Positions 1 through 36,369 are shown, numbered from the stretch's first letter. The stretch is DNA of 64,000 bases from Methanomassiliicoccales archaeon (GCA_013415695.1 JAAEEP010000006.1:21318-85317); one strand, 5' to 3'. Notes: a model not told the origin generated them from the sequence alone. Translations and numbers: made by a program.

Positions 1-626
1 CCATAACCGTACTCCGTCGAGGTGGACGGATTCCAGACATCGAAACCTGTGGCTACAACCACCGCCCCGACATCGAACTCCAGCATGACATCGTTCATCT
101 CGTAGTCGATCGCTTCCCTCTTGCAGACCTTCTTGCAGACCCCGCACTTTCCTTCCTTGAGGTACCTGCAGTTCTCAGGGTCTATGATCGCCGCTCTGGG
201 AACAGCCTGCATGAAGGGCATATAGATGGCCCTCCTTGTCGACAAACCTTGCTCCCACTCATTGGGTATATTCTTCGTGGGGCACTTTTCCAAGCATTCT
301 CCACACCCCGTACATTTGTATTCATCAACGTATCTAGCCTTCTTCAGTACCCTGACATTGAATTTGCCCTTCTCACCTTCGAGGCCGACCAATTCAGAAC
401 AGGTCATCACGTTAATGTTGGGGTGTCCATAGCAATCAGCCATCTTCGGGGCGAGTATACAGATCGAGCAGTCATTGGTGGGGAAGGTCTTGTCCAGCTG
501 TGCCATTCGGCCACCTATGCTGGGCTCCTTTTCCACCAGGTGCACGATGACTCCCTTGTCCGCTAGGTCCAAGGAGGCCTGTATGCCCGCGATGCCGCCG
601 CCAATTACCAGCACCGTTTTTTCCAT
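1..626 (-). CDS. hdrA: HdrA-like FAD/Fe-S flavoprotein, 5' part only (gene continues beyond window start)
   Basis: Manual minus-strand translation from ATG 626-624 (GGAGG upstream) stays open to position 1. It reads MEKTVLVIGGGIAGIQASLDLADKG..MAQLDKTFPTNDCSICILAPK..CTGCGECLEKCP..CRYLKEGKCGVCKKVC. It is absent from the ORF track because there is no stop in the window. Paralogous to the N-halves of the two large hdrA genes. Confidence 0.9.
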   Translation of the reverse strand, partial: MEKTVLVIGGGIAGIQASLDLADKGVIVHLVEKEPSIGGRMAQLDKTFPTNDCSICILAPKMADCYGHPNINVMTCSELVGLEGEKGKFNVRVLKKARYVDEYKCTGCGECLEKCPTKNIPNEWEQGLSTRRAIYMPFMQAVPRAAIIDPENCRYLKEGKCGVCKKVCKREAIDYEMNDVMLEFDVGAVVVATGFDVWNPSTSTEYGY

Positions 627-693
627 TTTTCTTTCCTCCGTCCAGTAAAACCACAGTATTTTCTTTTGGAAAGTGGATTCTTTTCCACGTCAT

Positions 694-2282: not shown

Positions 2283-2698
2283 TAGATCACCTCCTTCAAG
2301 GGGCTTGGACCGAGTTCCTCCAACTCTTTGGTGAAATTATTCATGGTATCGGCGAATTTGGTACCTTCCCCCGCGGAAATCCACTCCAGCCTCAATCTCC
2401 TGCTGTCCACGCCAAGAACGTCAAGAAGCTCCTTGGTCATTTCAACTCTCACTTTTGCCTTCTCGTTGCCCGCGATGTAATGACAGTCACCTATGTGGCA
2501 CCCAGCCACCAGCACACCATCCGCCCCCAATTCAAAGGCTTTCAGAATGAACTGCGGTTCCAGTCTTCCACTGCACATCACCTTAATGATCCTAGCACTG
2601 GGAGGATACTGCAGTCTGCTGACCCCCGCAAGGTCCGCGCCGGCGTAGGAGCACCAATTGCAGCAGAAGGCCACGATCCTCGGTTCGAAGGCAGTCAA
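2282..2698 (-). CDS. mvhD: MvhD-like [2Fe-2S] subunit (methyl-viologen-reducing hydrogenase delta family)
   Basis: Reads TAFEPRIVAFCCNWCSYAGADLAG..MCSGR..GADGVLVAGCHIGDCHY. The probable TTG start at 2698 overlaps the hdrA stop (TTGA). The track ORF extension to 2806 lies inside hdrA and is rejected. Confidence 0.8.
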   Translation of the reverse strand: MTAFEPRIVAFCCNWCSYAGADLAGVSRLQYPPSARIIKVMCSGRLEPQFILKAFELGADGVLVAGCHIGDCHYIAGNEKAKVRVEMTKELLDVLGVDSRRLRLEWISAGEGTKFADTMNNFTKELEELGPSPLKEVI

Positions 2699-5600
2699 TA
2701 TCTCACCCCCTCTAGGCAGGACTCGACCATTGCAAGTATCTGCTCGTTGGTGAAATGTTTGCTGATGATAGCCCCGTTGCAGCATGTCACTGCACATGTA
2801 CCGCATCCTTTGCAGAGCGCGGGGTTGATGCTGGCCTTGAAAACTCCTGGCTCAACTTCCTGCACTGTGATGGCGGAGAACTCACAGACTGCCTCGCATC
2901 TAGCGCAGCCCCGACATTTCACCTCCTCCACATAGCTTATTGTGGCCTCACCCTCCACGGTGTCCTTGGATATCACCATTATTGATCTTGATGCGGCTCC
3001 CGCCGCCTGGGCGATGCTCTCGTCCGCGAGCTTAGGCCAATGGGCAAGGCCTGCAAGGAACACCCCCTCGGTGGCGAAGTCCACCGGCCTGAGCTTCATG
3101 TGAGCCTCCAGGAAAAAGCCATCCTTGCTAAGGGGAACTTTGAGCATCTTCGCCAATTCCTCGTTGTCGGGATTGGGCTTAATGCCTGTGGAGAGTACCA
3201 CCATATCCGGTTGTACCGACACCTTGTCCCCAAGAATCACATCCTGGGCGGAAATATCGATGATGCCTCCATCCACCGTCATGTCTGGCATGGTGTCGTC
3301 CGGCATCCTTATGAACTTCACGCCAAGCTCGCCTGCCTCCCTGTAGAGATCTTCCTTGAAGCCGTAGGTCCGGATGTCTTTGTAGAACATGTATACCTCG
3401 GCCTCAGGGTTGGCCTTCTTGATGCTGATCGCATTGTTCATGGCAGTCGAGCAGCAGATGCGGCTGCACATCGGATTATCCTTAGTGCGGGAGCCAACAC
3501 ACTGGATCATGACCACATTCTTGGCCTCGAGAGGTTTCTCGGCCATCATCTCTGCCAACTCCAGCTGTGTGACCACGCGGTCATCCTCACCGTAGAAGTA
3601 CTCGGTGGGCTGGTATTCCTGTGCTCCCGTGGTCAGTATTATCGTGCCTGCCTCAATCTCTTCCTCCGGAAGTGATATCCTAAAGTTGCCCACGAAACCC
3701 GAGATGTTCTCAATCTCAGCGTTCAGATGTACGGTAATCTTCTCGTTTCTAGAGATCTTAGCAATGAGCTCATCGGATACCTGCTTGCCGGTCTTTCCAT
3801 CCTTGTAAATGTGGACCCGCTTCAGATTGCCTCCAAGGCCATCCGATCTTTCGATGATGTCCACATCGAAGCCTTGGGCGGCGATCTCGAGGGCGGTAAT
3901 CATCCCAGAGAGGCCACCTCCAATGATGGCGGCTGAGTGATAGACTTCAAGTTTAGTCCTCTCCAAAGGTGAGATGAGCCTTGCCTTCGCCACCGCCATT
4001 CTCACAAGGTCCTTGGCTTTCTCCGTGGCTTTCTTTGGCTCGTGAGAGTGCACCCATGAGCATTGGTCGCGTATGTTGGCCATCTCGAAGAGATACGGGT
4101 TCAGGCCGGCTTCCCTGATGGTACTCTGGAATAGAGTCTCGTGAGTCCTCGGTGTGCATGATGCCACGATCACCCTGTTGAGGTTGTTCACATTGATCAT
4201 CCTCTTGATGATCTCCTGAGTATCCTGGGAGCAGGTGTACAGGTTCGCCTCGGCGTGAACGACATTTGGCAGGGTCTTTGCATACTCCACCACCTCCGGG
4301 ACGTTGATCACCCCGCCGATGTTGATGCCGCAGTGGCATACGAACACCCCTATTCTGGGCTCTTGAGTCCTTATGTCGACCTCATGAGGATACTCCTTTG
4401 GTTTGGCAAGTGTATTCCTCCTATCCGAAATGATTGCCGATGCCTTAACCGCTGCTCCCGAAGCCTCGGCCACCGTGGTCGGGATGTCCATGGGAGCAGC
4501 GAATGACCCGCTTACGAATATGCCCTCCTTGGATGTACTCAGCGGATCCCAAGCACCGGTTTCACAGAAGCCGTACTTGTTCAGCTCAATGCCGAAGACC
4601 TCCTGCAATTTCCCGGCGCTGTTCGAAGGGCAGAGACCTACCGAAAGGACTGCCATTTCGAACTCTTCCTCGTAAACATCGCCCCCTTCGCTGTACCTGA
4701 CGATAATGTTCTTGGTCTCAGGGTCTTCCTCGAGAGAGGCCACCCTAACTCCCCGGTGAATAATAACGCCACGTTCAAGCTCAGCGCGCTTGCGGTAGTC
4801 CTCGAACTCCTTTCCGACCGCTCTCACATCCATGAAGAAGATGTGCGGTTCCAGTCCCTTGGCGTGTTCCCCAGCGATGATGGCCTGCTTGAGCGCGTAC
4901 ATGCAGCAGACTGATGAGCAGTAGGTGTTTCCTACCTTCTCATCCCTGGACCCAACGCATTGCAAGAACGCTATCTTGGAGGGTATGTCACCATCTGAAG
5001 GTCTAAGCACATGCCCGAGATATGGGCCAGTGGCGCTGAGAATCCTTTCAAATTCTATGCTGCTCACCACATTCAGGTATTCTCCATAGCCATACTCCTT
5101 CTTCACCGAAGGCTCAAATTCCTCCGAACCAGGCGAAAGAATGATAGAACCCACCTCGACCGCTACGGACCTGTCCGCCAGCTCGAAATCGATGGCTCCG
5201 GTATTGCATGAGAGCTTGCAGGCACCGCACCCTATGCAGAGTTCGGGATCAATGCTGTATACCAGGGGAACCGCTTGAAGGTAAAGCACAGATATCGCTT
5301 TCCTCCTCATGAGCCCCTCGTTGAACTCATCTACGTACTCGACGGGACAGTTCTCTGCACAGGTTCCGCAGCCTATGCATTTCTCTGGGTTGACCTTGGG
5401 TACCCTCTGTTTGAGCGTCACCTTGAAATTTCCGGGCTCACCCTCGCATTTTTCAAGATCCGCATTGTTTATTATTGTGATGTTGTGATGCCTTCCCGCC
5501 TGCACGAGTTTTGGGGCGAGTATGCACATCGCGCAATCGTTGGTGGGGAAGGTCTTGTCCAGCTGGGCCATCACGCCCCCGATGCTTGGCTTCTTCTCCA

Positions 5601-5700
5601 CCAAGTAGACTCTGAAGCCTGAGTCGGCAAGATCCAGGGCTGACTGTATTCCAGAGATGCCGCCCCCGACGACCATTACTGCGCCGATCTTTTCGCCCAT
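2695..5700 (-). CDS. hdrA: Double-length HdrA-like flavoprotein (about 1001 aa)
   Basis: N-half: GGGISGIQSALDLA, LDKTFPTNDCAMCILAPK, CIGCGTCAENCP, CIGCGACKLSC, CVGSRD..YCSSVCCMYALK. Middle: VFVCHCGINIGG..ASCTPR..DQCSWVH. C-half: a second GGGLSG Rossmann motif, IQCVGSR..MCSRICC, and terminal CRGCARCEAVC plus CKGCGTCAVTC. ATG 5700 has SD GGAGGTG; the track start 5709 is GTG. Confidence 0.85.
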   Translation of the reverse strand: MGEKIGAVMVVGGGISGIQSALDLADSGFRVYLVEKKPSIGGVMAQLDKTFPTNDCAMCILAPKLVQAGRHHNITIINNADLEKCEGEPGNFKVTLKQRVPKVNPEKCIGCGTCAENCPVEYVDEFNEGLMRRKAISVLYLQAVPLVYSIDPELCIGCGACKLSCNTGAIDFELADRSVAVEVGSIILSPGSEEFEPSVKKEYGYGEYLNVVSSIEFERILSATGPYLGHVLRPSDGDIPSKIAFLQCVGSRDEKVGNTYCSSVCCMYALKQAIIAGEHAKGLEPHIFFMDVRAVGKEFEDYRKRAELERGVIIHRGVRVASLEEDPETKNIIVRYSEGGDVYEEEFEMAVLSVGLCPSNSAGKLQEVFGIELNKYGFCETGAWDPLSTSKEGIFVSGSFAAPMDIPTTVAEASGAAVKASAIISDRRNTLAKPKEYPHEVDIRTQEPRIGVFVCHCGINIGGVINVPEVVEYAKTLPNVVHAEANLYTCSQDTQEIIKRMINVNNLNRVIVASCTPRTHETLFQSTIREAGLNPYLFEMANIRDQCSWVHSHEPKKATEKAKDLVRMAVAKARLISPLERTKLEVYHSAAIIGGGLSGMITALEIAAQGFDVDIIERSDGLGGNLKRVHIYKDGKTGKQVSDELIAKISRNEKITVHLNAEIENISGFVGNFRISLPEEEIEAGTIILTTGAQEYQPTEYFYGEDDRVVTQLELAEMMAEKPLEAKNVVMIQCVGSRTKDNPMCSRICCSTAMNNAISIKKANPEAEVYMFYKDIRTYGFKEDLYREAGELGVKFIRMPDDTMPDMTVDGGIIDISAQDVILGDKVSVQPDMVVLSTGIKPNPDNEELAKMLKVPLSKDGFFLEAHMKLRPVDFATEGVFLAGLAHWPKLADESIAQAAGAASRSIMVISKDTVEGEATISYVEEVKCRGCARCEAVCEFSAITVQEVEPGVFKASINPALCKGCGTCAVTCCNGAIISKHFTNEQILAMVESCLEGVRY
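3488..3600. repeat. Near-identical block shared with 7265-7377 (hdrA paralogs)
   Basis: By manual alignment, 89 nt are perfectly identical (3488-3576 = 7265-7353), and 113 nt match with 2 mismatches. Flanking sequence is much more diverged. Confidence 0.85.
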
Positions 5701-5701
5701 C

Positions 5702-6475
5702 TCAGGCACCTCCCCTCAACAGAGCCTTGTATTTCGGTGTAGGGCCCTCAATGGAGTCCATGCCTATGAGATTCCTCGACCTCAGAACGACTACTTGCTT
5801 CAGTATTTCTTGAGGGGGAGCACCTATCTCTTCCGCCAATTCCTTTACTGAGAGGGGATTGGTCTTAGTCAATTGGAGGATAAGATTTCTTTCATAGTCC
5901 TCCTTTACCACCACTTCGGTCAGCTCATCCAGTTCATCAACGTTGATGAGGTCGCCGTAGACATTCCCTCTCTGAGTAAGATCCAATTCCTTGCCGCTGA
6001 GAAGCCTCAGCCTGTACTCTCGGGCAGTCCCAATAGCGGCGTCGAGCTTCACTTGAAGCTCCTCATTGTCCTTGACCGGGGATGGTCCAAGCTTCTTCAG
6101 GTACTTGACGAAATCGTCGACAACCTCGGCGAACCTCTCGCCTTCCGAGGCTGAGACAGGTTCTAACCTCAGCCTCCCTGGGTCAAGACCAACGAATTCC
6201 ATCAACTGCCATGCCATCTCCACCCTCTTCTGCGTGTATATGTGAGCGGAGAGATTGCAGCAGTCCTCGATGTGACAACCCCCGATCAACACCCCATCAG
6301 CTCCCTCGCTGAACACTTCGAGGATTATGTGAGCGGTAATCCTGGTGCTGCAAAGCACCCTGATAGAGCGTATATTGGTTGAATACTGGAAATGACTCAC
6401 GCCTGCCAGGTCAGCACCGGCATAGGCGCAGAAGTTGCATAGGAAACCAATGATCTTTGGTTCAAAGTTGCTCAC
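5702..6475 (-). CDS. mvhD: MvhD-like domain with a C-terminal extension of about 120 aa resembling a winged helix-turn-helix
   Basis: GTG 6475 overlaps the hdrA stop (GTGA). Reads SNFEPKIIGFLCNFCAYAGADLAG..GADGVLIGGCHIEDC, then ..NLILQLTKTNPLSVKELAEEIGAPPQEILKQVVVLRSRNLIGMDSIEG. The track extension to 6694 is rejected. Confidence 0.75.
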   Translation of the reverse strand: MSNFEPKIIGFLCNFCAYAGADLAGVSHFQYSTNIRSIRVLCSTRITAHIILEVFSEGADGVLIGGCHIEDCCNLSAHIYTQKRVEMAWQLMEFVGLDPGRLRLEPVSASEGERFAEVVDDFVKYLKKLGPSPVKDNEELQVKLDAAIGTAREYRLRLLSGKELDLTQRGNVYGDLINVDELDELTEVVVKEDYERNLILQLTKTNPLSVKELAEEIGAPPQEILKQVVVLRSRNLIGMDSIEGPTPKYKALLRGGA

Positions 6476-9400
6476 TCCATCACCTCCTTGAGGGCCACAC
6501 AGGCCTCGGCCAGGAGCTGAGAATCTGTGTAATGCATGAGGACGATTGCCCCCACTGGGCAGGCTGCTCCGCAGGAGCCGCACCCCTTGCATAGGGCAGG
6601 GTTCACAGACGCTTTCAGAGCACCTGTGGAGTCTTCTTTCATATCTACCGCACTGAAAGCACAGACCTCCTGGCAAATGCCGCAAGCCCTGCACTTCAAT
6701 TCATCGATCACTGGAACCGGGGCCATCCCCTCTAACTCGCTCTTCGCGATTATGGTCATGGCCTTCGAAGCAACGGCCGCGCCCTGGGCGATGCTCTCGT
6801 TGGCAAGCTTCGGCCAATGGGCAAGACCTGCCATGTAAATACCTTCAGTGGAAAATTCCACAGGTCTTAACTTCATATGAGCCTCCTGGAAGAAGCCATC
6901 TTTGCTAAGGTGAATCTTTAGCATCCTTGCCAGCTTGCTCGAATCTTCCCTGGGTCTAATACCAGTGGAAAGGACCAAGAGGTCCGCATTGACAACCACC
7001 TCATCTCCGAGAATGAAGTCATTGGCGCTGACCAATAATCTACCATCTTCCATCTTGACCTCAGGCATTTCGGCATCAGGCATCCTTATGAACTTCACAC
7101 CCAACTCGCAAGCTTCCCGATAGAGATCCTCCCTGAGGCCGTAGGTCCTTATGTCCTTACAGAAAACAAAGACATTTGAACCTGGGTTGCTCCTCATTAC
7201 ATTAATTGCATTGTTCATAGCTGTCGTGCAGCAGATACAGCTGCACATCGGATTGTCCTCGGTCCGGGAGCCAACACACTGGATCATGACCACATTCTTG
7301 GCCTCGAGAGGTTTCTCGGCCATCATCTCTGCCAACTCCAGCTGTGTGACCACACGGTCATCCTCGCCGTAGAAGTATTCCTGTGGTTGATACTCCTCAG
7401 CGCCTGTGGCCACAATGATGGCCCCAGCCTTTATCGGTCCACCATTGGTATTGAGCACGAAGTTGCCCACGAAACCCGCTACTTCCTCTATCTCTGTCTC
7501 AAGATGGACGGTCACCCTATCATTTGACATGACTCTGGAAATCATCTCATCCGCAGCTTCCCTTCCGGTTTTGCCGTCTTGCTTAAAAAGCACTCTATTC
7601 AAATGACCTCCAAGCCTGTCTGATCTCTCGATCAGATCGACCTCGTAGCCATTACTGGCGATCTCCAGGGCGGATGTCATTCCGGCGAGACCGCCTCCTA
7701 TGACCGTGACGGAATGGCCAATTGGGAATGTGGGTGTTGTCAAAGGCTCAACCAGTCTTACCTTGGCCACTGCCATCTTAACCAGATCATTTGCCTTAGC
7801 GGTGGCCTTTCTCTTCTCATTCATGTGAACCCACGAGCATTGATCGCGTATGTTTGCCATCTCCAGGAGATACTGGTTCAGGCCAGCTTCCCTGATGCAA
7901 TTCTGGAATAGCAGTTCGTGTGTCCTTGGAGAACACGAAGCGATCACTATCCTGTTCAATCTGTGTTCTTCGATCTTCTCCTTCATCAATTCAAGTGCGT
8001 CCTGTGAGCACGCATAAAGGAAGTCGGAAACGCTGATCACATCGGGCAGTTCCTTCGTGGCCTGTACAACCTTCTTCACATTGACCACACCACCGATGTT
8101 TCTACCACAGTGACATACGAATACCCCTATTCTGGGCTTCTCACCCTGCACATCCTTTTCTGAGGGGTAGTCCTTTCGAAGGATGGAGACTTTCTCCCGT
8201 TCGGTGACGGTCGAAAGCGCTTTAGAAGCTGTTCCAGACGCCTCAGCGACAGAGGCTGGTATGTCCTTTGGTGCTGAGAAGGTCCCACACACGTAGATAC
8301 CATCCCTGGAAGTGGATAAAGGATCCCAGACGCTTGTGGAGCAGAATCCGTCCTTGTTGAGCTCGACGCCGAAAACCTTGGAGATTTCCCCGGCCGATGT
8401 GGTAGGGCAGACACCCACTGACAGAACCACAAGATCGAAGGTCTCCTCGACCAGTCTTTCACCATCGCTGTAGTGAACAATAAGGTTCTCGTCGTCATCC
8501 TCATCAATGGAGGCGACTCGAGTCCCTCGATGGATCACAACTCCTTCTTCCTGCTCCGCCCGGATACGATAGTCCTCGAACTCCTTGCCAACCGTCCTTA
8601 CGTCCATGAAGAATATGTGCGGCTCCACCTTATTGAGGCGGTTCTTGGCGATCATGGCTGCCTTGAGTGCATGCATGCAACAGACAGATGAACAGTAGGT
8701 GTTTCCTACCTTATCATCTCTGGAACCCACACATTGGAGGAATGCAATTCTATTTGGCGCCTTCTTGTCAGATGGCCTTAGTAATTGGCCTTCATAGGGT
8801 CCAGCAGTGCTGAGGATCCTTTCAAATTCTCTGCTCGACACAACATTCTTGAAGAACTCATAGCCGTACTCCGTCTTCATTGAGGCATTGCATTCATCAA
8901 AACCAGGACAGAGTATCACTGAGTTGACTTCGAACTCGATCTCCTCGTCCTCCATATCAAAATTGATGGCGTCGTACTCACAGACCTTTGCGCATATTCC
9001 GCACTTCCCCTGTGTCAGATATAGACAGGTCTCTGGATCTATGACCGCGGTCTTCGGAACCGCTTGTGGAAATGGAATATATATCGCCTTTCTCGTAGAT
9101 AGTCCAAGTTCCCAGTAATCTAGGACTCCTTTCACAGGACACTTCTCAATGCAGTCCCCACGACCCATGCATTTTTCCTGATCGATGTATGTGGCCTTCC
9201 TGAGAACCTTCACCTTGAAGTCTCCCTTGTCGCCCTCAAGCCCAATCACCTTGGAATGGGTTAGAACATTGATGTTTGGATGGCCATAGCAGTCAACCAT
9301 TTTCGGAGCCAGTATGCATATCGAGTAATCATTAGTTGGGAAAGTCTTGTCCAATTGGGCCATCTTCCCACCAATGCTTGGATCTTCTTCTACCAGATAC

Positions 9401-9495
9401 ACTTTGACACCGACCTCGGCTAGGTCTAATGCCGCTTGAATTCCTGCTATTCCTCCACCAACAACAAGTACTGAGTTAGGCTCGTTGTCGGTCAA
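6472..9495 (-). CDS. hdrA: Double-length HdrA-like flavoprotein (about 1007 aa) with substitutions in conserved Cys motifs of the N-half
   Basis: Same architecture as 2695-5700. The probable TTG start at 9495 follows SD GGGAGGA and aligns with the paralog N-termini (LTDNEPNSVLVVGGGIAGIQ); the track start 9552 is also TTG. It carries TNDYSICIL and CMGRGDCIEKC instead of TNDC..C and CxGCGxCxxxC. Confidence 0.85.
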   Translation of the reverse strand: MTDNEPNSVLVVGGGIAGIQAALDLAEVGVKVYLVEEDPSIGGKMAQLDKTFPTNDYSICILAPKMVDCYGHPNINVLTHSKVIGLEGDKGDFKVKVLRKATYIDQEKCMGRGDCIEKCPVKGVLDYWELGLSTRKAIYIPFPQAVPKTAVIDPETCLYLTQGKCGICAKVCEYDAINFDMEDEEIEFEVNSVILCPGFDECNASMKTEYGYEFFKNVVSSREFERILSTAGPYEGQLLRPSDKKAPNRIAFLQCVGSRDDKVGNTYCSSVCCMHALKAAMIAKNRLNKVEPHIFFMDVRTVGKEFEDYRIRAEQEEGVVIHRGTRVASIDEDDDENLIVHYSDGERLVEETFDLVVLSVGVCPTTSAGEISKVFGVELNKDGFCSTSVWDPLSTSRDGIYVCGTFSAPKDIPASVAEASGTASKALSTVTEREKVSILRKDYPSEKDVQGEKPRIGVFVCHCGRNIGGVVNVKKVVQATKELPDVISVSDFLYACSQDALELMKEKIEEHRLNRIVIASCSPRTHELLFQNCIREAGLNQYLLEMANIRDQCSWVHMNEKRKATAKANDLVKMAVAKVRLVEPLTTPTFPIGHSVTVIGGGLAGMTSALEIASNGYEVDLIERSDRLGGHLNRVLFKQDGKTGREAADEMISRVMSNDRVTVHLETEIEEVAGFVGNFVLNTNGGPIKAGAIIVATGAEEYQPQEYFYGEDDRVVTQLELAEMMAEKPLEAKNVVMIQCVGSRTEDNPMCSCICCTTAMNNAINVMRSNPGSNVFVFCKDIRTYGLREDLYREACELGVKFIRMPDAEMPEVKMEDGRLLVSANDFILGDEVVVNADLLVLSTGIRPREDSSKLARMLKIHLSKDGFFQEAHMKLRPVEFSTEGIYMAGLAHWPKLANESIAQGAAVASKAMTIIAKSELEGMAPVPVIDELKCRACGICQEVCAFSAVDMKEDSTGALKASVNPALCKGCGSCGAACPVGAIVLMHYTDSQLLAEACVALKEVME
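7265..7377. repeat. Partner of the 3488-3600 near-identical block
   Basis: See 3488-3600. Confidence 0.85.
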
Positions 9496-9633
9496 GCTCT
9501 TCCTCCCTTTTCTGCAATCTAGGTCCTCCCTGATTTCGTCCCAATAGCCCAATTGTGAGGGTCATGATGTTGAATCTCGCCCTCCCGTCTCAGATGGATG
9601 ATGCTTCGTAAGAAGGCAAAATCCATCCGATAA

Positions 9634-9657: not shown

Positions 9658-10253
9658 TCCCAAAAAAGAACGAAGCTTCGTAGACATGTTGAAAGGAGCG
9701 ACCTCCGGCTAGAGCGTGTGTCGTTTTCCCAACACGAGCCAGAGTTGAGTTTTCTCGTGGTCTCCATTCTCATTCCTCGACTCTTCGACTGGTCCTTGGA
9801 AGCTTGCCCAAAGGTCGAATTCCTCAGAAGGAATACGATTATGTCAGCAGTTCCGTCCAATTCCCATCACACCATAACCATCCTTACGATAAGCGGCAAT
9901 GTTGGAACCGTGGGGCTTCCGTTGACATCTTCAAATTCCCGACTGGATATTAACCCAAAAGGGGATTCGATTTTCATAGGTGAAGCGTAACTCGGCTATT
10001 TGATATTTACTCCGAACTAGTTTCAGATTTTCATCCCGTATATTTTATTTCTCGTTTTCAAGCAACGAATATTTTCTATTAATTACACAATTGTTATGAT
10101 ATTCGTAATCATAAAGATAAAAATCAAGAAATCAAAGATTCGAATCAAGAATAAAACATAGGTGATGATTGATGATGTTTCTTGCTTTTTTCGAAATCAT
10201 TTGCCCTTGACCTCGGATCTGATTTCTTGAAATGCGTATCAATCATATGTAAT

Positions 10254-11006
10254 ATGAAAAACGTAGAAAGAGATTTAATTCAAATAACCCTGCCGTTCCC
10301 TGTGATCATTCTCCTGGTTACCGCAACGGTTCTCGGGGCAATGGCCGCTGTGACGATCATCAGTCTAAGGAGTTACATGAATTCCAAGGAAGGATGCGAC
10401 CAGGGGTCAATGGTCCCAAAACTCGACGGTATCACAAAGATCATTTGGAGGGGCAGGATCAGTAATCAAAGGCCAAGGGTGTTGGTAAACGGGCCCGAGG
10501 TGAAATCCCAAGTCTGCCAGATCTGTCTGGGAAGGATCAAAGAGGGTTCAAACCATCTGGAGTGTAATTGCGGCAGAACTTTTCACATCATCTGCCTCTC
10601 GCGCACGGGCTTCTGCCCTTATTGTCATGAACCCTATGAGAACCTGATACCTCAAACGGGAAACATTCAATCATTTCTGACATGCCCCCTATGTGGCATC
10701 AATCTAGAACCAGGATCAAGAAGATGTGAATGTGGTGCAATATTCCAGGAGGAAGGAGTTGACTTCTGCTGCCCCATCTGCGGGACCCATATCTCCGAGG
10801 AAAACACAGTCTGTCCCTATTGCGGGGAGATATTCGATTGCTATCGTCTCATCAATTGCCCTGTCTGCGGACTTATGATCGATGAGGATACAGAGGTCTG
10901 CGATTGCGGGGCGGTCCTTATTGATCGCTGCCCTGGGTGTGATGCCCCCCTGGGAGCGGAGGATAGGTACTGCATAAGTTGTGGCGCAGAATTCGAGTTC
11001 ATTTGA
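10254..11006 (+). CDS. Single-pass membrane protein with a C4HC3 cross-brace-like finger followed by four zinc ribbons
   Basis: ATG 10254 (the track start 10182 lies in AT-rich DNA). TM segment ITLPFPVIILLVTATVLGAMAAVTIISL. Finger CQICLGRIKEGSNHLECNCGRTFHIICLSRTGFCPYC, then CPLCG..CECG, CPICG..CPYCG, CPVCG..CDCG and CPGC..CISCG. Confidence 0.7.
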   Translation: MKNVERDLIQITLPFPVIILLVTATVLGAMAAVTIISLRSYMNSKEGCDQGSMVPKLDGITKIIWRGRISNQRPRVLVNGPEVKSQVCQICLGRIKEGSNHLECNCGRTFHIICLSRTGFCPYCHEPYENLIPQTGNIQSFLTCPLCGINLEPGSRRCECGAIFQEEGVDFCCPICGTHISEENTVCPYCGEIFDCYRLINCPVCGLMIDEDTEVCDCGAVLIDRCPGCDAPLGAEDRYCISCGAEFEFI

Positions 11007-11100
11007 ATACCCTTCCTGAGCATTGTGGCGAAGAGAATGGATTTAAGTATTTCCAACCGTATTCGCCAACCCGAATTCTAAACATCTGGGATGGGAAATC

Positions 11101-12180
11101 ATGAAATCCATCATTGACAGGGCATTGGAGGCTCACGAGGAATCTGTGGACGAAGAGGGAATTGAGCAACCTGGCCTTCCTATGGAGTCAGACGAAGAGC
11201 TAAGGAAGCTGGTAGAGTCTCTTCAGGTGAGCATAACAATCATGGGTTGCGGAGGTGGCGGTTCAAACACCATCCGCAGGATCAACGAAGCGGGAATAAT
11301 AGGCGCCACGCTAGTAGCTGCAAACAGTGATGCCAAGCACCTACTTTCCATTCAGGCACCGAACAAGATACTTCTAGGCAGGACGATCACAAGAGGGCTT
11401 GGAGCAGGGGCGCAGCCGGACGTAGGTAGAAGAGCCACTGACGAGGCCAGAACTGACATCATGAGATTCATCCAGAACCAGGACATCGTGTTCATCACCG
11501 CGGGAATGGGCGGCGGTACGGGAACTGGCTCCGCTCCCTACGTTGCAGAGCTTTCCAAACGAACCAGCAGGCTTGTGATGGGTATTGTCACTCTCCCTTT
11601 CAGGGCTGAGGGGAAACTAAGAAGGGAAAATGCCCTCAGAGGTCTGGACCTCATGAAAGAATTCTGCGATACCACCATTGTTGTGGAGAACGACAAGTTG
11701 TTGGAACTGGTGCCGAAGCTCCCAATCGAAGCCGCTTTCAGGGTAGCTGATGAGGTTTTAATGCAGTCCATCAAGGGCATAACCGAGATCATCACCAAGC
11801 CCGCACTGGTCAATGTCGACTTCAACGACATGATGACCATCATGGAGAACGGCGGCGTGGCAATGATAGGTATCGGTGAATCAGATTCCAGCAATGGAAG
11901 GGTGGAGGAAGCGGTGTCAGAGGCCATGTCTTCACCACTCCTGGGTGACATCGATGTGAAATCAGCGAAAGGCGCGTTGATCCGTGTTGTTGGTGGACCT
12001 GATATGACCGTTTCCGAGGCGGAGAAGGCTGCCAGGCTCATAGGAGATCAGATCAACCCGATGTCAAGGATCATCTGGGGATGCGCTGTGGAGCCAGAGG
12101 TTGAGGGCACTATCAAGGTGCTGGTGGTCATCACAGGCGTAAAGTCACCCCAGTTCATAGAAAAAGGTACTATCCTTTAA
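11101..12180 (+). CDS. ftsZ: Cell division GTPase FtsZ
   Basis: GCGGGGSNTIRRI, tubulin signature GMGGGTGTGSAP, and T7-loop NVDFNDMMTIM. Confidence 0.9.
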   Translation: MKSIIDRALEAHEESVDEEGIEQPGLPMESDEELRKLVESLQVSITIMGCGGGGSNTIRRINEAGIIGATLVAANSDAKHLLSIQAPNKILLGRTITRGLGAGAQPDVGRRATDEARTDIMRFIQNQDIVFITAGMGGGTGTGSAPYVAELSKRTSRLVMGIVTLPFRAEGKLRRENALRGLDLMKEFCDTTIVVENDKLLELVPKLPIEAAFRVADEVLMQSIKGITEIITKPALVNVDFNDMMTIMENGGVAMIGIGESDSSNGRVEEAVSEAMSSPLLGDIDVKSAKGALIRVVGGPDMTVSEAEKAARLIGDQINPMSRIIWGCAVEPEVEGTIKVLVVITGVKSPQFIEKGTIL

Positions 12181-12198
12181 GACCGGTGAATAGAGGAC

Positions 12199-12510
12199 AT
12201 GGTAGTCAAGGACAAGAGGGGTAGAAGGCGGTACATTGCCTTCGTCCTAACCCAAGGTGGCCCGATTACTAAGAGCGGGCTCATCACGCTCCTGAGGGAA
12301 GCATCCAGAGAGTATAGGATTGAAGAACCGAGGGTGATCGAATTCGATGGGACGAAGGGCATAGTGAGATGCGGCCACCTTCTAAAGGAAGAGACTCTGG
12401 CGATCCTCGGTTCCTTCAGTGAACGAAAGGATGGCATTGAGGTCAAGACATTGAGCACTTCGGGGACGTTGAGGAAACTGAGAGAGCAATACTTCAATTC
12501 AGAAAATTGA
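12199..12510 (+). CDS. rnp2: RNase P protein component 2 (Pop5/Rnp2)
   Basis: 103 aa. RRRYIAF, GIVRC and TLSTSGTLRKLREQY match the archaeal Pop5 layout. Confidence 0.75.
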   Translation: MVVKDKRGRRRYIAFVLTQGGPITKSGLITLLREASREYRIEEPRVIEFDGTKGIVRCGHLLKEETLAILGSFSERKDGIEVKTLSTSGTLRKLREQYFNSEN

Positions 12511-12589
12511 CGAACCAGTTGCTAGCTGCTCTATCCATGGCATTACTTGGACAGGATAACGGGGGCTAATGCACCCTAGGAACTCAATC

Positions 12590-12629
12590 CAGCTACCCCA
12601 CCGCAAGTAGCTGAGTCATTTTCTTTTAT
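12590..12629 (+). terminator. Hairpin plus T-tract after rnp2
   Basis: CAGCTAC (12590-96) pairs with GTAGCTG (12607-13), followed by CATTTTCTTTTA. Confidence 0.4.
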
Positions 12630-12752
12630 GTAAACCATGGACCTAATCTGGATTTCATTCAACCTCGTGATTAATAATATATAGCTAGTAAAGTAGATAT
12701 TAACAATGTTCACAACACGAATGATACCTTCTTGTAATGGAGGAACGAAGGA

Positions 12753-14495
12753 ATGGCACAAAGCAAGGAAGGGACGATAGCGATCTATATTTGCTCTGAA
12801 CAGGACAAAATGTGTGATTTCATTGATCTTGAAAGCATCAGGGATATGCTCCTCCGTGAGAAGGACGTGGTCGATGTTCTCATACATCACCAACTCTGTG
12901 CCGTGGATGAGATCATCAAGATCGTGGAGAGATATCGAGAGCACAAGCCTGAGAGAGTCCTGTTGGGTTGCTGCCAGACCGCAACAAGTGAACGATTAAG
13001 GGAGTCATTGATAGAAGCTGGCCTGAACAAGTACCTCTATGAGAGGGTGAACCTCAAGGAGCTTGTCATGCTAGTCCATATAGACAGGGAGAGGTCGACT
13101 AGAAGGGCAAAATCCCTGCTGCTGAGCGGTTTGGCCCGCTTGCGGCGGGCCAAGCCGTTGGATGATATTGTCATGCCCATACGGGACAGCGTCCTCATCA
13201 TTGGAGGCGGCATAGCCGGAATGGCATCCGCGAAGGCCATTGCTGACGAGGGTTTCAAGGTCTATCTGGTGGAGAAGGAAAAACGACTTGGAGGGAGAGC
13301 GTATCAACTATCTACCACCTTCCCAACCCATGAATGCGGAATATGCTGCATGAGGTACTGCAAGGAGTGTGTTCTTACTCCAAAGATACCAGAAATCGCA
13401 ACACATCCTAATATCGAGGTTATGCTGAATAGTAATGTCACGCATATATCTGGGCGCTTTGGAGAGAGGCATATCGAGGTTGAATCGAATGGTGACATGC
13501 AAGAATTCGATGTTGGGATCATCATAGTGGCGACTGGCTCCAAAACCTTCGACCCCATTTCACTCCCAGAGTACAATTACGATAGGTTGGAGAATGTGGT
13601 GACCTCCATGGAGTTCTGCGACATCATGGCCAAAGCAAGCACCGCAGATTTCAGAAGGCCTTCCGACAACAAGATTCCCAAGGTTGTGAACTTCGTACTC
13701 TGCGTAGGATCCCGCGACTGCCATCGAGCCAACAACTACTGCTCCATAGTATGCTGCACATACGCGATCGGTTCGGCCAAGGAGTTTAAATTGGCCCACC
13801 CGGAGACAGAAGTCTACATACACTTCATCGATCTCAGAGGCCCATACAGGGGGTTCGAAACACTTCTTCTCGAGGCCAGGGAAGCAGGCGTGATATTCAT
13901 CAGGGGACGTGTGGCAGAGATAATCGATGATGACGGCGAGATACTGCTCAGGGTGGAGGATGCAGACGCTGGAGAGCTCTTGAACATCCATAGCGATCTC
14001 GTGATCCTCGCCGTGGGTCAGGAGCCAAGCGTTGGTTCGGAGGAGCTGGGGAAGATGCTCCGACTGCAGGTTGACATTGACGGATTCTTGAAGGACTTCA
14101 ACCCGATGTATCCTGAGGAGATTAGGAAGGGGATCTATGTGGTGGGTTGTGCCCAGGGTCCCAAGGGAATAAGATACTCCATCGACGACGCTAAGAGGAC
14201 AGCATTCGAAGTCATTAACCTCCTGAACAAGGGTGAGATATCAATTGATAATCTTGTCGCTGAGGTCAATGAGCATACCTGCCGTGGGTGCGGTCGATGC
14301 GTGGAGAACTGTCCCTTCGAAGCCGTTGAGCTGGTGGAAAAGGGTGACGAGAAGATCGCCCAAGTCGATGAAATGGTCTGCGAAGGATGTGGTATCTGCT
14401 CGGTGGTCTGCTGCAACAAATCGATAACCATGAGACATTATACGAGAGACAGCCTGCTTTCCCAGGTTCGCTCGGTGATCAAGGAGGTCAGCTAA
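12753..14495 (+). CDS. hdrA: Short HdrA-like flavoprotein (580 aa) with a degenerate CHCG-type N-domain and an extra Cys insertion
   Basis: The N-domain-like segment has YICSEQ instead of VCHCG. Then IIGGGIAGMASAKAIADEG, LSTTFPTHECGICCMRYCKECVLTPK, CVGSRD..YCSIVCCTYA, and C-terminal CRGCGRCVENCP plus CEGCGICSVVC. SD GGAGG lies 9 nt upstream of the ATG. Confidence 0.8.
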   Translation: MAQSKEGTIAIYICSEQDKMCDFIDLESIRDMLLREKDVVDVLIHHQLCAVDEIIKIVERYREHKPERVLLGCCQTATSERLRESLIEAGLNKYLYERVNLKELVMLVHIDRERSTRRAKSLLLSGLARLRRAKPLDDIVMPIRDSVLIIGGGIAGMASAKAIADEGFKVYLVEKEKRLGGRAYQLSTTFPTHECGICCMRYCKECVLTPKIPEIATHPNIEVMLNSNVTHISGRFGERHIEVESNGDMQEFDVGIIIVATGSKTFDPISLPEYNYDRLENVVTSMEFCDIMAKASTADFRRPSDNKIPKVVNFVLCVGSRDCHRANNYCSIVCCTYAIGSAKEFKLAHPETEVYIHFIDLRGPYRGFETLLLEAREAGVIFIRGRVAEIIDDDGEILLRVEDADAGELLNIHSDLVILAVGQEPSVGSEELGKMLRLQVDIDGFLKDFNPMYPEEIRKGIYVVGCAQGPKGIRYSIDDAKRTAFEVINLLNKGEISIDNLVAEVNEHTCRGCGRCVENCPFEAVELVEKGDEKIAQVDEMVCEGCGICSVVCCNKSITMRHYTRDSLLSQVRSVIKEVS

Positions 14496-16108
14496 TGGAG
14501 GGGGAGGCTTTCGATCCGGTCGTGGTCACATTCGCCTGCAACTGGTGCGGTTATCCCGCAGCGAGATTGACCGGAGTTCAGAACATCGATTATCCATCGG
14601 GAATCAAGATCGTTCGGGTGATGTGTACTGGGAGGGTCGATCCGGCCATGATAATGAAGGCCTTCGAGTACGGCGCGGACGGTGTGGCCCTCGTCGGTTG
14701 CCGCATGGACGAGTGCCACTTCCTTGAGGGAAACAAGAAGGCCAAAGAGAGAGTGGAAGCGATAAAGAAGATCCTCGATTACATCGGTCTTGATGGGGGT
14801 CGTCTGGAAGCTGAGTGGTTGGCCGCAGCCGAGACAAAGAAATTCGCAAAGCTCACTAACGACCTCGTCTCGAAGATAAAGGAACTCGGTCCAAACCCCA
14901 TTCCGCGAATCGGTGAGATGGGTGAGGAGGAGGCTGTCTTCGACAAGGACGCGATCGATGATATTATCTCGAGCACCAGCGCCCACGACTGCGTGGAGTG
15001 CGGTAAGTGCACTAGCGTATGCCCGGTGGCCAGGTTCGATGAGGAGTTCGCTCCCAGGAGAATAGTGCTTCGAGCCCTTGAGGGAGTGTCCGACAAACTT
15101 GCCGAAGACAAGGACATATGGTCCTGCATCACCTGCGAGATGTGCAATGCTATGTGCCCCTACGAGGTCGATTACTCCGAGTTCATCAGGAGAATGAGAT
15201 CGGAGGCCGTGCTGTTAGGGGGAAGGCATGATTCGATAATCAAGGAATGCCCCCAAGGTGGGATGCTGCAGAGCATGATGAGGATCATGGCATATACCGA
15301 GAAGCAGAATAGGCTCTCCTGGATACCTGAGGATGTGAGGATCCAGACAACGGGAGATGTCTTCTACTTCACAGGTTGTCTTCCCCACATGGACTTGGTG
15401 TTCAGAGACCGGGAATTGGACCTTACCCAGACCGCAGTGAGCGCTATCAAGCTTCTGAACCACGCTGGTATCGAGCCCGTGGTGAGCAACAACGAGGTCT
15501 GCTGTGGTCACGATCTCAATTGGGTAGGTGATGAGGATAGTTTCGAGCTGCTGATGAACAAGAACATCGAGGCCATTAAGGAGAGTGGGGCAAAGACGGT
15601 GGTCTTCACCTGCCCCGAGGGACTTAGAACCTTCGATATTGATTACAGGGACATACTTGGGGATCTGGATTTCGAAGTGATGCACATCTCGGAGTTCCTT
15701 CTGGAGCTTGCGGATGAAGGCGATATCGACCTCTCCTCGGACAACAGTGGAACAGTGACCCTTCACGAGTCCTGTAGGCTGGGCAGGCATCTGGGCATCT
15801 ACGATCCGCCGCGAGAGCTACTGGAAAGAGCGGGGATCGAGATCAAGGAAATGGAGAACGTAAGGGACAAGGCCATCTGTTGTGGTGTCAGCTCTTTCGT
15901 GGCATGCAGCGAATCGGCTCAAAAAATGCAGCTCGAGAGAATAATGGAGGCCAAGAGGACTGAAGCAGAGACCCTTCTGACAGTCTGCCCCAAGTGCAGG
16001 ATACACCTGAGCTGCGCGATCTCAAAGGAGATCCCTTGTGACCGCGAGTTGGTGGACATTCCTATCGAGGATTATACTGTGTACCTTGCTAGGCACTTGA
16101 ACCTATGA
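14495..16108 (+). CDS. MvhD-HdrC-HdrB triple fusion (537 aa)
   Basis: ATG 14495 overlaps the upstream stop (TAATG) and follows AAGGAGG. MvhD part: VVVTFACNWCGYPAARLTG..GCRMDECHF. HdrC part: CVECGKCTSVCP and CITCEMCNAMCP. HdrB CCG part: VCCGHD and AICCGV. The track extension from 14387 is rejected. Confidence 0.85.
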   Translation: MEGEAFDPVVVTFACNWCGYPAARLTGVQNIDYPSGIKIVRVMCTGRVDPAMIMKAFEYGADGVALVGCRMDECHFLEGNKKAKERVEAIKKILDYIGLDGGRLEAEWLAAAETKKFAKLTNDLVSKIKELGPNPIPRIGEMGEEEAVFDKDAIDDIISSTSAHDCVECGKCTSVCPVARFDEEFAPRRIVLRALEGVSDKLAEDKDIWSCITCEMCNAMCPYEVDYSEFIRRMRSEAVLLGGRHDSIIKECPQGGMLQSMMRIMAYTEKQNRLSWIPEDVRIQTTGDVFYFTGCLPHMDLVFRDRELDLTQTAVSAIKLLNHAGIEPVVSNNEVCCGHDLNWVGDEDSFELLMNKNIEAIKESGAKTVVFTCPEGLRTFDIDYRDILGDLDFEVMHISEFLLELADEGDIDLSSDNSGTVTLHESCRLGRHLGIYDPPRELLERAGIEIKEMENVRDKAICCGVSSFVACSESAQKMQLERIMEAKRTEAETLLTVCPKCRIHLSCAISKEIPCDRELVDIPIEDYTVYLARHLNL

Positions 16109-16304
16109 TGGACGAGGATTAGGACATCATGAGTTTAGAGACCCGTGAGAATTCACAATCCCTCCTCCAACCCTTTGTTCTAGGGAAATGTTCAACAATG
16201 ATGTTATTCAATCAAATTGGAAATTCAGAAAGAATCGAATGACCCGATCGAACTCAATTGCTGCCCTTTTATTTGTGAAATAGTTGAGCGAAAACTCGGT
16301 CAAT

Positions 16305-16350
16305 GGGATGCATCCCAGAGGGATGTCGAGACAATAGCTATATATTTAAG
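16305..16350 (+). promoter_or_regulatory. Perfect 12-bp palindrome GGGATGCATCCC (plus a third GGGATG half-site) next to a TATA-like CTATATATTTAAG upstream of psmA
   Basis: Read directly. Palindrome at 16305-16316, GGGATG again at 16321-16326, AT box at 16338-16350, ATG at 16411. Confidence 0.35.
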
Positions 16351-16410
16351 TAGTTGTTTAGGCAGATAGCGTAGCGAAGCCTATATGTGTAATTAATAAG
16401 GAGTGATGAA

Positions 16411-36120: not shown

Positions 36121-36369
36121 AAGATCTACCTTTCCTTTGGAAGTATAGAATAGCATATTAATAAATTTGTGAGTTCGGGTCAAGGATACTCCGGTTATGC
36201 CCAAGGTTCATTGAAATTGGATTGAGAATGATATCGAGCCTTTCGATATCCGTAGGATGCACTGAAAATCAATTGATTGTCCTGTTCGAACCAGCATATC
36301 GCGTCACTGGCATCATGAGAAGATATATAGCCTTCCCGCGATGTTCTGAGCCAAGAACAAGAGGATTAG

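Follow-up and report, generated by a model that had tools for sequence, protein, structure and literature searches.

Positions 12753-16108 of a 64,000-nucleotide (nt) stretch from a Methanomassiliicoccales archaeon (GCA_013415695.1, JAAEEP010000006.1:21318-85317; this whole stretch is called the window below) hold an operon of two genes, one for an HdrA-like protein of 580 amino acids (aa) and one for a 537-aa protein in which MvhD, HdrC and HdrB are joined in a single chain. With moderate confidence, we read the pair as a coupled operon for a soluble, self-contained flavo-iron-sulfur enzyme of the heterodisulfide reductase (Hdr) kind, probably of composition (HdrA-like)2(MvhD-HdrCB)2, which would have no dedicated hydrogenase or formate dehydrogenase partner. 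The operon is real and is maintained by purifying selection. A preliminary description of the window had reported a second, compact hdr-like locus at this place, and this was confirmed; all of its statements on the sequence hold in the open reading frames (ORFs), Pfam matches and alignments. The genes and their junction are as follows.

12753-14495, + strand: hdrA-like gene, 580 aa; ORF with Pfam Pyr_redox_2, NAD_binding_8 and Fer4_21, match to 5odc_A at E 1.7e-99, Foldseek template modelling (TM) score 0.73-0.81 to HdrA structures
14481-14488, + strand: Shine-Dalgarno-like AAGGAGGT, inside the end of the hdrA-like gene and 6 nt before the ATG of the fusion gene, read directly
14495-16108, + strand: mvhD-hdrC-hdrB fusion gene, 537 aa; ORF, Pfam, homologues, AlphaFold2 (AF2) model with a predicted local distance difference test (pLDDT) of 78 and a predicted TM score (pTM) of 0.83

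At the junction (GTC AGC TAA TGG) the stop codon TAA (14493-14495) and the start codon ATG (14495-14497) have one base in common, which is the TAATG overlap noticed before. We propose that AAGGAGGT and the one-base overlap lead to translational coupling of the two genes. Related loci show equivalent overlaps of stop and start, with ATGA at all three junctions that were read. Wherever a locus includes enough upstream DNA, the end of an hdrA lies at most a few bases from the start of the fusion, or within about 500 nt of it in two loci. A longer form of the fusion ORF (14387-16108) was rejected, because the ATG at 14387 lies inside hdrA, all homologues begin at MEGEAF and AAGGAGGT precedes 14495. 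The HdrA-like protein ends with a stop codon after residue 580, and MvhD is not found at its C-terminus. In one related locus (L068) a single HdrA-MvhD-HdrD chain was considered and also rejected, since the true junction there is an ATGA overlap.

For identification of further subunits, the ORFs of 40 window-type loci were clustered all against all. Only the hdrA-like gene and the fusion gene are universally conserved, and the other clusters that appeared to be conserved are antisense shadow ORFs or reflect local synteny. No third partner gene (hydrogenase, Fdh, FrhB-like or membrane anchor) is conserved in these 40 loci. The same holds for a gene of a MvhAG, Vhu or Fdh input module, which also does not adjoin the pair in the window, and for hdrE, the gene of a membrane subunit with b-type cytochrome, which was not detected among those window ORFs that were scanned with Pfam (a part of all ORFs). 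Five loci listed with their Pfam families have no hydrogenase, formate dehydrogenase or membrane-anchor genes as neighbours. The conservation of only two genes together fits the minimal two-polypeptide enzyme that had been suggested; the absence of a further subunit we infer.

The fusion is not the product of a frameshift or an assembly error. An identical 537-aa protein is encoded in three independent assemblies (GCA_013415715.1, a 109-kb contig and the Logan assembly of DRR851344), and more than 100 full-length homologues share the fusion architecture. A scan of GTDB with one genome per species revealed 327 loci with a relative of the fusion. The best 80 of these 327 were retrieved, and all of them are full-length collinear fusions with 46-91% identity, from metagenome-assembled genomes labelled as Thermoplasmata, Thermoplasmatota, Methanomassiliicoccales or by older names (Euryarchaeota, Methanobacteriota). 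GTDB genomes with the fusion often hold two or three copies. Of the 120 best database clusters nearly every one is full-length (520-559 aa), and FlpD and CCG matches are seen in each of them. A library of 1.84 billion representatives, made by clustering at 50% identity, yielded about 20 clusters among its best 150 that cover both halves, at identities down to 34%. Named members of these more distant fusions include Ca. Alkanophaga/Alkanophagales, Planctomycetota and unclassified bacteria, and Pfam confirmed FlpD and CCG in them. A cultured species is named on none of the 120 best matches for either protein. Selection was estimated against the closest relatives of the window genes as the ratio of nonsynonymous to synonymous substitution rates (dN/dS), which is 0.06-0.11 for hdrA, 0.04-0.08 for the fusion and 0.10-0.20 for the N-terminal 140 codons of hdrA. 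HdrA had been called degenerate; its N-terminal domain has indeed lost its cluster ligands, but purifying selection on both genes including this domain (dN/dS 0.04-0.20 overall) means that the word overstates the decay.

Many homologues carry the Joint Genome Institute (JGI) label [quoted passage not shown], and from these two-part labels it follows that annotation pipelines already recognise both halves of the fusion. The fusion family is widespread in uncultured Thermoplasmata and apparently unstudied, uncharacterised rather than unseen.

The HdrA-like protein contains the following elements.

12753-13172, + strand: N-terminal domain, aa 1-140, with a degraded cluster site; alignment with 75 partner HdrAs
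13335-13370, + strand: 5-Cys motif C195-x2-C198-C199-x3-C203-x2-C206, including an 8-residue insertion
13617-13619, + strand: Cys289 at the position of Glu356; the main family retains this Glu, the window subclade does not
13701-13757, + strand: [4Fe-4S] motif of the thioredoxin-reductase domain, CVGSRD...CSIVCC (C317, C330, C334, C335); invariant columns, aligned to the classical motif
13770-13772, + strand: Gly340 at the position of Lys409; Gly in all 120 clusters
14259-14432, + strand: C-terminal ferredoxin domain with two CX2CX2CX3C motifs (C510-C520, C543-C553); Pfam Fer4_21 at 503-560, eight invariant cysteines

Compared with HdrA of M. thermolithotrophicus (5odc_A), the protein aligns in two blocks, residues 6-243 to 3-234 and 238-578 to 305-652 (E 1.7e-99). 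Residues 235-304 of 5odc_A are without a counterpart, and no Fer4 match was found between residues 200 and 500. Therefore, the inserted ferredoxin domain of about 70 residues, which holds two [4Fe-4S] clusters and forms the classical exit to ferredoxin, is missing. Its loss is common to the whole window-type family. The thioredoxin-reductase fold that binds flavin adenine dinucleotide (FAD) is present, with GGGIAGM at 151-157 (GxGxxG) and matches to Pfam Pyr_redox_2 and NAD_binding_8. The AF2 models of both proteins are of moderate confidence, and that of the HdrA-like protein (pLDDT 77) confirms the HdrA fold by Foldseek. The NCBIfam scores fall below both cut-offs, with 460.5 bits for HdrA2 (cut-off 1100) and 365.7 bits for HdrA (cut-off 1400).

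In the N-terminal domain YICSEQ stands for VCHCG, GCCQTAT for ACSPxxx and KELVMLVH for (R/K)EQC(A/S)WVH. The replacement by YICSEQ and KELVMLVH had been reported before together with the Cys-rich insertion, and all three were borne out by alignment to 5odc_A and to the 1026-aa HdrA of the window itself, which has VCHCG and DQCSWVH at the positions of YICSEQ and KELVMLVH. Among the 120 closest clusters, all three canonical cysteine motifs of the N-terminal domain are kept in 92 and are not all kept in 26. The Methanomassiliicoccales-affiliated subclade to which the window belongs (55-91% identity) has lost at least two of the canonical cysteine positions. The cysteines left over differ among the relatives in this subclade, which points to decay of the site rather than to a new conserved site.

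The insertion of 8 residues lies in FPTHECGICCMRYCKEC, compared to FPTNDCSIC----ILAPK in 5odc_A. C195 aligns to Cys194 and C198 to Cys197 of the classical HdrA. The resulting 5-Cys motif is invariant in 18 of 18 aligned sequences, in all 42 window-type sequences and in 119 of the 120 clusters. Its family consensus is FPTH(N/E)CGICC(M/I/V)xYC(K/R)(E/G)C, with a near-invariant CX2CCX3CX2C. A short HdrA with this insertion is thus the norm of a large family and not a local oddity. The last three cysteines, with their CX3CX2C spacing, appear compatible with a cubane site, and an additional [4Fe-4S] cluster is most likely held by the motif. The 5-Cys motif is not described in the passages searched of the papers on Hdr diversity, which survey mcr-bearing genomes or anaerobic methanotrophic archaea (ANME).

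The fusion protein is divided as follows.

14522-14890, + strand: MvhD/FlpD domain, aa 10-132; Pfam FlpD at E 5e-47, matches to 7bkb_F and 5odc_D at E of about 1e-36
14891-14980, + strand: MvhD-HdrC linker, aa 133-162; unbroken reading frame in every homologue, with differing length and sequence
14981-15169, + strand: HdrC-type module for two [4Fe-4S] clusters (C166/169/172/176-P, C211/214/217/221-P); Pfam Fer4_8 at 163-225, match to 5odc_C at E 1e-13
15368-15622, + strand: first CCG domain (C295, C336-C337, C373, Gly376), with CPEG for CPEC
15755-16009, + strand: second CCG domain with a complete motif (C427, C462-C463, C498-x2-C501); Pfam CCG at 421-505, conservation

The ORF and the Pfam matches confirm MvhD, HdrC and two CCG domains in one chain of 537 aa. 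MvhD/FlpD (PF02662) scores 159 bits against a cut-off of 22.3. The five cysteines for its [2Fe-2S] cluster (C15, C18, C44, C69, C74) are all present and are conserved in 79-84 of 84 sequences. By Foldseek this part is similar to solved chains of the MvhD type (MvhD/VhuD homologues), with TMt 0.82-0.88 and about 43-46% identity, and its best NCBIfam model is HdrA2 (171 bits, model positions 645-774). The linker is about 14 residues longer than the joined ends of the unfused genes in the first hdr cluster of the window, and residues 141-146 have a pLDDT below 50. All eight HdrC-type cysteines occur in 84 of 84 sequences; with 53-65 bits the NCBIfam HdrC models remain below their cut-offs of 160-350.

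The CCG motif is defined as CX31-39CCX35-36CXXC. Pfam CCG (PF02754) reaches its cut-off with 81.9 bits, and the two CCG stretches are matched at E 3.5e-23. In the AF2 model the HdrB part shows a Foldseek TMt of 0.61-0.67. The first motif reads C295-x40-C336C337-x35-C373-P-E-G376, so that the fifth cysteine is absent and the first spacing is one residue over the definition. This fifth cysteine is present in 80 of 85 sequences, and CPEG is restricted to the 8 closest clusters and the HdrD of the first cluster in the window. Over the 84-85 sequences scored, 25 cysteines of the fusion are conserved in 79-84 of 84; of the ten CCG cysteines the window has nine.

From these motifs the predicted cofactors of the window enzyme are FAD, three canonical [4Fe-4S] clusters in HdrA and a putative one at the 5-Cys motif, and in the fusion one [2Fe-2S] cluster, two HdrC-type [4Fe-4S] clusters, one complete CCG site and one CCG site with four cysteines. 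HdrA would thus hold four [4Fe-4S] clusters, against six in the classical enzyme. A different cluster complement had been suspected, and it is predicted here from the absence of the inserted ferredoxin domain, the lost N-terminal ligands, the 5-Cys motif and the change of CPEC to CPEG in the first CCG motif.

In addition, the HdrAs encoded upstream of MvhD-HdrD fusions were compared in an alignment of 75 sequences, which revealed at least four types. The window type comprises 42 of these sequences (the window and 41 loci) and also the 120 closest clusters. Its features are an N-terminal domain, the absence of the inserted ferredoxin domain, the cluster motif of the thioredoxin-reductase domain, the C-terminal ferredoxin domain, the 5-Cys motif and Gly at CC+5, the position assigned to Lys409 by ungapped alignment with three solved HdrAs. 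By these features the window-type HdrA is a distinct class. Type X (L039, L043-L075) shows the full set of N-domain cysteines, no Cys197 motif and Ala or Asn in place of Lys409; another hdrA is found further upstream. In type Y (L028, L042) Lys409 and Glu356 are kept. Type Z (L080, L082, L084) has no cluster cysteines in the thioredoxin-reductase domain, and its fusion is without MvhD Cys18 and CCG Cys498. In a rough neighbor-joining (NJ) tree of the fusions the clades match the type of HdrA upstream, which indicates co-evolution of the two partners.

An unfused counterpart of the fusion is present in the first cluster of the window.

1137-2806, - strand: unfused mvhD (2282-2806) directly followed by an hdrD-like gene (1137-2282, 381 aa), with one base common to start and stop

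Over residues 154-535 the fusion has 53% identity to the HdrD-like protein (E 2e-159), which confirms the paralogy to 1137-2282 reported before, and over residues 5-139 it has 48% identity to the MvhD. This E-value and those of the alignments and Pfam matches given above, like the conservation across homologues, lie far outside what chance would give. When the unfused mvhD and hdrD products are concatenated, they show 59-60% identity to the fused type X proteins and 51% to the window fusion, and type X is their sister in the NJ tree. As the unfused pair is closer to type X fusions than to the window fusion, the mvhD/hdrD junction must have been fused or split more than once; judged from these relationships, fusion and fission at this junction are evolutionarily labile.

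One of the closest known systems is HdrABC-MvhAGD of Methanothermococcus thermolithotrophicus (5ODC), with the related solved complexes 7BKB, 8RVU and 9SFI. Common to both are the HdrA fold, the FAD site, the thioredoxin-reductase motif, Cys194/Cys197, the C-terminal ferredoxin domain and the MvhD, HdrC and HdrB modules with nearly all ligands. In contrast to that complex, the window family has MvhD, HdrC and HdrB in one chain, no inserted ferredoxin domain, the Cys-rich insertion of 8 residues at position 197 and Gly for Lys409. The window protein itself is further without the N-terminal ligands, Glu356 and one CCG cysteine, and no hydrogenase genes adjoin its locus.

In domain content, HdrA2B2C2 of M. 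acetivorans would be the closest characterised analogue. It shows the same set of HdrA, MvhD, HdrC and HdrB domains with no dedicated hydrogenase, and HdrA2 is the best NCBIfam model both for the HdrA-like protein and for the MvhD part of the fusion. HdrA2B2C2 uses reduced ferredoxin or F420H2, and its hdrA2 (MA2868) is not adjacent to hdrC2B2 (MA4236/4237) (PMC5296606). In the window, however, MvhD forms the N-terminal part of the HdrCB chain, whereas HdrA2 carries it C-terminally; HdrC and HdrB make up one chain instead of two, the inserted ferredoxin domain is missing and the score is far under the HdrA2 cut-off.

HdrD, from Methanosarcina HdrDE or as the soluble HdrD of Methanomassiliicoccales, likewise combines the HdrC-type dicluster and two CCG domains in one chain; unlike HdrD, the window fusion has an N-terminal MvhD, always an HdrA partner and an incomplete first CCG motif. 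The split and double HdrAs of ANME and Methanomassiliicoccales follow the same logic as the window type, in which Fe-S modules are added to or removed from a single FAD core, and show complementary loss of Cys197 or of the N-terminal domain (PMC9012536, PMC12054007, PMC4153887). Such double HdrAs occur in the first cluster of the window, and HdrAs of this kind are the partners of type X fusions. The window-type HdrA differs from them as a single protein which keeps its N-terminal domain together with the Cys197 equivalent and has the 5-Cys motif. The best match in fold and sequence to the fused HdrC and HdrB-like part as a single chain is EtfD (9OJN). EtfD is a membrane protein which receives electrons from electron transfer flavoprotein. 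The matched region is an internal segment (391-727) of a chain of 1042 residues, EtfD has no MvhD domain and, unlike EtfD, the window protein has an HdrA partner.

Fusions known in Hdr systems from the literature are HdrC-HdrB (HdrD), HdrA-MvhD (HdrA2), HdrA-HdrA and HdrA with GltD/NfnB-like modules, and HdrD occasionally lies beside HdrA. Literature searches for a MvhD-HdrD, MvhD-HdrCB or HdrBC-MvhD fusion and for the assembly accession gave no match, and this fusion is not described in the passages searched of papers on Hdr diversity. A related architecture was observed in three proteins of 864-1146 aa (P0343, P0248, P0276), in which a GltD/NfnB-like NAD(P)H module (Fer4_20 and Pyr_redox_2) is joined to an HdrD part. 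In P0343, ferredoxin and MvhD domains lie in between; it was considered as an HdrA fusion and rejected as such, as it is a fusion of the GltD type.

By its motifs, the high-potential wire of the enzyme is intact, with FAD, the [4Fe-4S] cluster of the thioredoxin-reductase domain, two HdrC-type [4Fe-4S] clusters and two CCG-type sites. The input side is also intact by the same measure, with the [2Fe-2S] ligands of MvhD and the C-terminal domain of HdrA for two [4Fe-4S] clusters. The classical low-potential exit, as predicted from the alignments, is gone: the inserted domain is missing throughout the family, and the window subclade has lost the canonical ligands of the N-terminal cluster. Residue 197 (Cys; selenocysteine in M. 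maripaludis) is a ligand of the N-terminal cluster of the partner and a proposed relay to the flavin, and the N-terminal domain together with MvhD/VhuD is a mobile docking and gating module in classical Hdr (PMC9012536, PMC13518236). The insertion at residue 197 thus falls on the hinge of the low-potential branch of the classical enzyme, of which the family lacks the downstream domain. Lys409 and Glu356 were proposed as a criterion that splits bifurcating from non-bifurcating HdrA (PMC12054007).

Based on these features, reduced ferredoxin could deliver electrons through MvhD, through the C-terminal domain or at the new Cys site; alternatively, F420H2 or NAD(P)H could pass a hydride to the FAD, similar to HdrA2B2C2. 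The electrons would then run through the HdrC/HdrB part and reduce a disulfide. This would be the heterodisulfide of coenzyme M and coenzyme B (CoM-S-S-CoB) if the host is a methanogen, and another disulfide in the many Thermoplasmata that are probably non-methanogenic. The cluster at the new Cys site might replace the low-potential branch in a remodelled bifurcation, or it might add an entry point. The cysteine-poor N-terminal domain is probably kept as a docking surface for the MvhD domain. The losses in the window subclade (N-domain ligands, Glu356 and the CCG cysteine) make classical bifurcation unlikely there, and we lean towards a non-bifurcating, or at least non-canonical, disulfide reductase in this subclade that would depend on ferredoxin or a hydride.

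Several observations weigh against a self-contained enzyme of this kind. A conserved Lys/Arg is located three residues after Gly340 (K343 in the window clade, Arg in the main group) and could substitute for Lys409, so that bifurcation may persist. MvhD keeps all of its [2Fe-2S] ligands, which would permit docking to a hydrogenase or dehydrogenase encoded elsewhere. In the AF2 monomer, the loop 188-202 has a pLDDT below 50, which does not define the geometry of the five cysteines, and cluster binding by the motif is putative. The first CCG motif of the window is without its fifth cysteine, and CCG proteins may also serve acceptors other than disulfides. The HdrCB part is best matched in NCBIfam by TfrB, then by LdhH and GlpC, ahead of HdrC and HdrB (all below their cut-offs), and in fold by M. 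smegmatis EtfD (9ojn; Foldseek E 9e-13, sequence E 1.6e-33). The other large window ORFs that were scanned are housekeeping genes, which give no sign of the lifestyle of the host (mcr genes, CoM/CoB synthesis).

A more far-reaching proposal is that the family represents a new class of Hdr. In this class the whole low-potential arm, with the N-terminal cluster and the inserted ferredoxin domain, would be replaced by a single new [4Fe-4S] cluster that CX2CCX3CX2C holds at the residue-197 relay beside the flavin, and Lys409 would be dispensable, giving either a shortened bifurcation or a non-bifurcating ferredoxin:disulfide reductase. We regard this as tentative and rather doubtful.

It is unlikely, to a further degree, that the pair forms the core of a canonical bifurcating Hdr, in which MvhD docks a MvhAG or FdhAB-type module encoded elsewhere. 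In that case H2 or formate would drive the simultaneous reduction of ferredoxin and CoM-S-S-CoB; here the Cys-rich site would replace the inserted ferredoxin domain. MvhD is the known adaptor between input modules and HdrA (PMC13518236), cultured Methanomassiliicoccales carry mvhADG (PMC4153887), and N-domain cysteines, Cys197 equivalent and Glu356 are all retained in the main family. However, the 40 loci hold no conserved hydrogenase or formate dehydrogenase gene beside the pair, Lys409 is replaced by Gly in all members and the inserted ferredoxin domain is absent, with the further loss of N-domain ligands and Glu356 in the window subclade. Moreover, the genome already has a separate, larger hdrA/mvhD/hdrD cluster.

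The same low probability is given to an HdrD-like half that is not a disulfide reductase. Its CCG domains would then donate electrons to, or accept them from, some other substrate such as a carrier of the quinone type, an organic acid or thiols undergoing oxidation, similar to EtfD, GlpC, SdhE, LutA or TfrB, and the flavoprotein would act as a dehydrogenase or a confurcating module. The fold match to EtfD together with TfrB as the best NCBIfam model (followed by LdhH and GlpC, none reaching its cut-off) makes such a role a live rival, and it would agree with the state of the first CCG motif, whose fifth cysteine is gone from both HdrD copies of the genome, and with the abundance of the family in lineages not known to make CoM-S-S-CoB. 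Against it, the second CCG motif and four of the five cysteines of the first are HdrB-like, most members of the family are complete in both motifs, the fusion is always partnered by an HdrA as in bona fide Hdr, and the 40 loci show no conserved neighbouring gene for a membrane anchor or a dehydrogenase partner.

An artefact joining mvhD to hdrD by frameshift or mis-assembly, or a pseudogene decaying under relaxed selection after duplication, might be suspected from the ligands lost both in the N-terminal domain and in the first CCG motif and from the second Hdr cluster with unfused mvhD and hdrD, but it has a negligible probability and is rejected given the three assemblies, the collinear full-length homologues (46-91% identity in the 80 GTDB loci, about 20 of 150 clusters down to 34%) and dN/dS values of 0.04-0.11 (0.10-0.20 in the N-terminal domain).

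The surroundings of the operon are also of interest. The first cluster includes two double HdrAs of 1004 and 1026 aa (2695-5709 and 6472-9552, - strand), each with two thioredoxin-reductase/FAD modules ("type II"). The N-terminal half of the 1026-aa protein reads FPTNDYSIC, with Cys194 lost and Cys197 kept. A further hdrA runs off the start of the window (1-690, - strand); its N-terminus is MEKTVLVIGGGIAGIQ, it has no N-terminal domain and it shows FPTNDCSIC and the inserted ferredoxin domain. With this partial gene the first cluster holds at least three hdrA genes. Between the double HdrAs (5702-6694, - strand) a MvhD-domain protein is encoded which has a C-terminal extension of about 125 aa, helical, rich in charged residues and without a Pfam match; the start of this ORF overlaps the upstream hdrA, and the true start is probably near 6470. 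Just upstream of ftsZ a protein with multiple zinc-ribbon (DZR) repeats is encoded (10182-11006, + strand), and the same order is found in the related locus L004 (GCA_026394375.1). Comparison of L004 with window positions 10182-16410 revealed a relocation of the hdr pair inside surroundings that are conserved. The pair of L004 adjoins an insertion sequence (DDE_Tnp_1) and is located upstream of the zinc-ribbon gene, ftsZ and rpp14; that of the window is placed between rpp14 and the gene of the proteasome alpha subunit. Elsewhere in the window (34768-36204, - strand) a class-I pyridine nucleotide-disulfide oxidoreductase with a dimerisation domain (Pyr_redox_2 and Pyr_redox_dim) was identified, which adds a further thiol/disulfide enzyme to the window. 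Scans of the window for tRNAs and Rfam families gave no match.

Flavin-based electron bifurcation by enzymes of the Hdr type is central to anaerobic energy metabolism, and the parts of HdrA that it requires have been argued from a few large hydrogenase-bound complexes. The family described here would be a naturally minimal system of two polypeptides, in which the high-potential wire is intact and the low-potential wire is rebuilt or removed. It offers graded natural variants, with N-terminal cluster and Glu356 retained in the main family and absent from the window subclade. Its compact size could make it useful for expression and structural studies and for a test of the Lys409/Glu356 signature. 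If the family is a new class that still bifurcates, the Lys409/Glu356 criterion would be challenged. If it is non-bifurcating, it would show which elements switch bifurcation off, with the window subclade as a further-reduced natural "knock-out" of the N-terminal cluster. For uncultured Thermoplasmata, "HdrABC/MvhD" calls should not automatically be read as H2-driven bifurcating heterodisulfide reductases.

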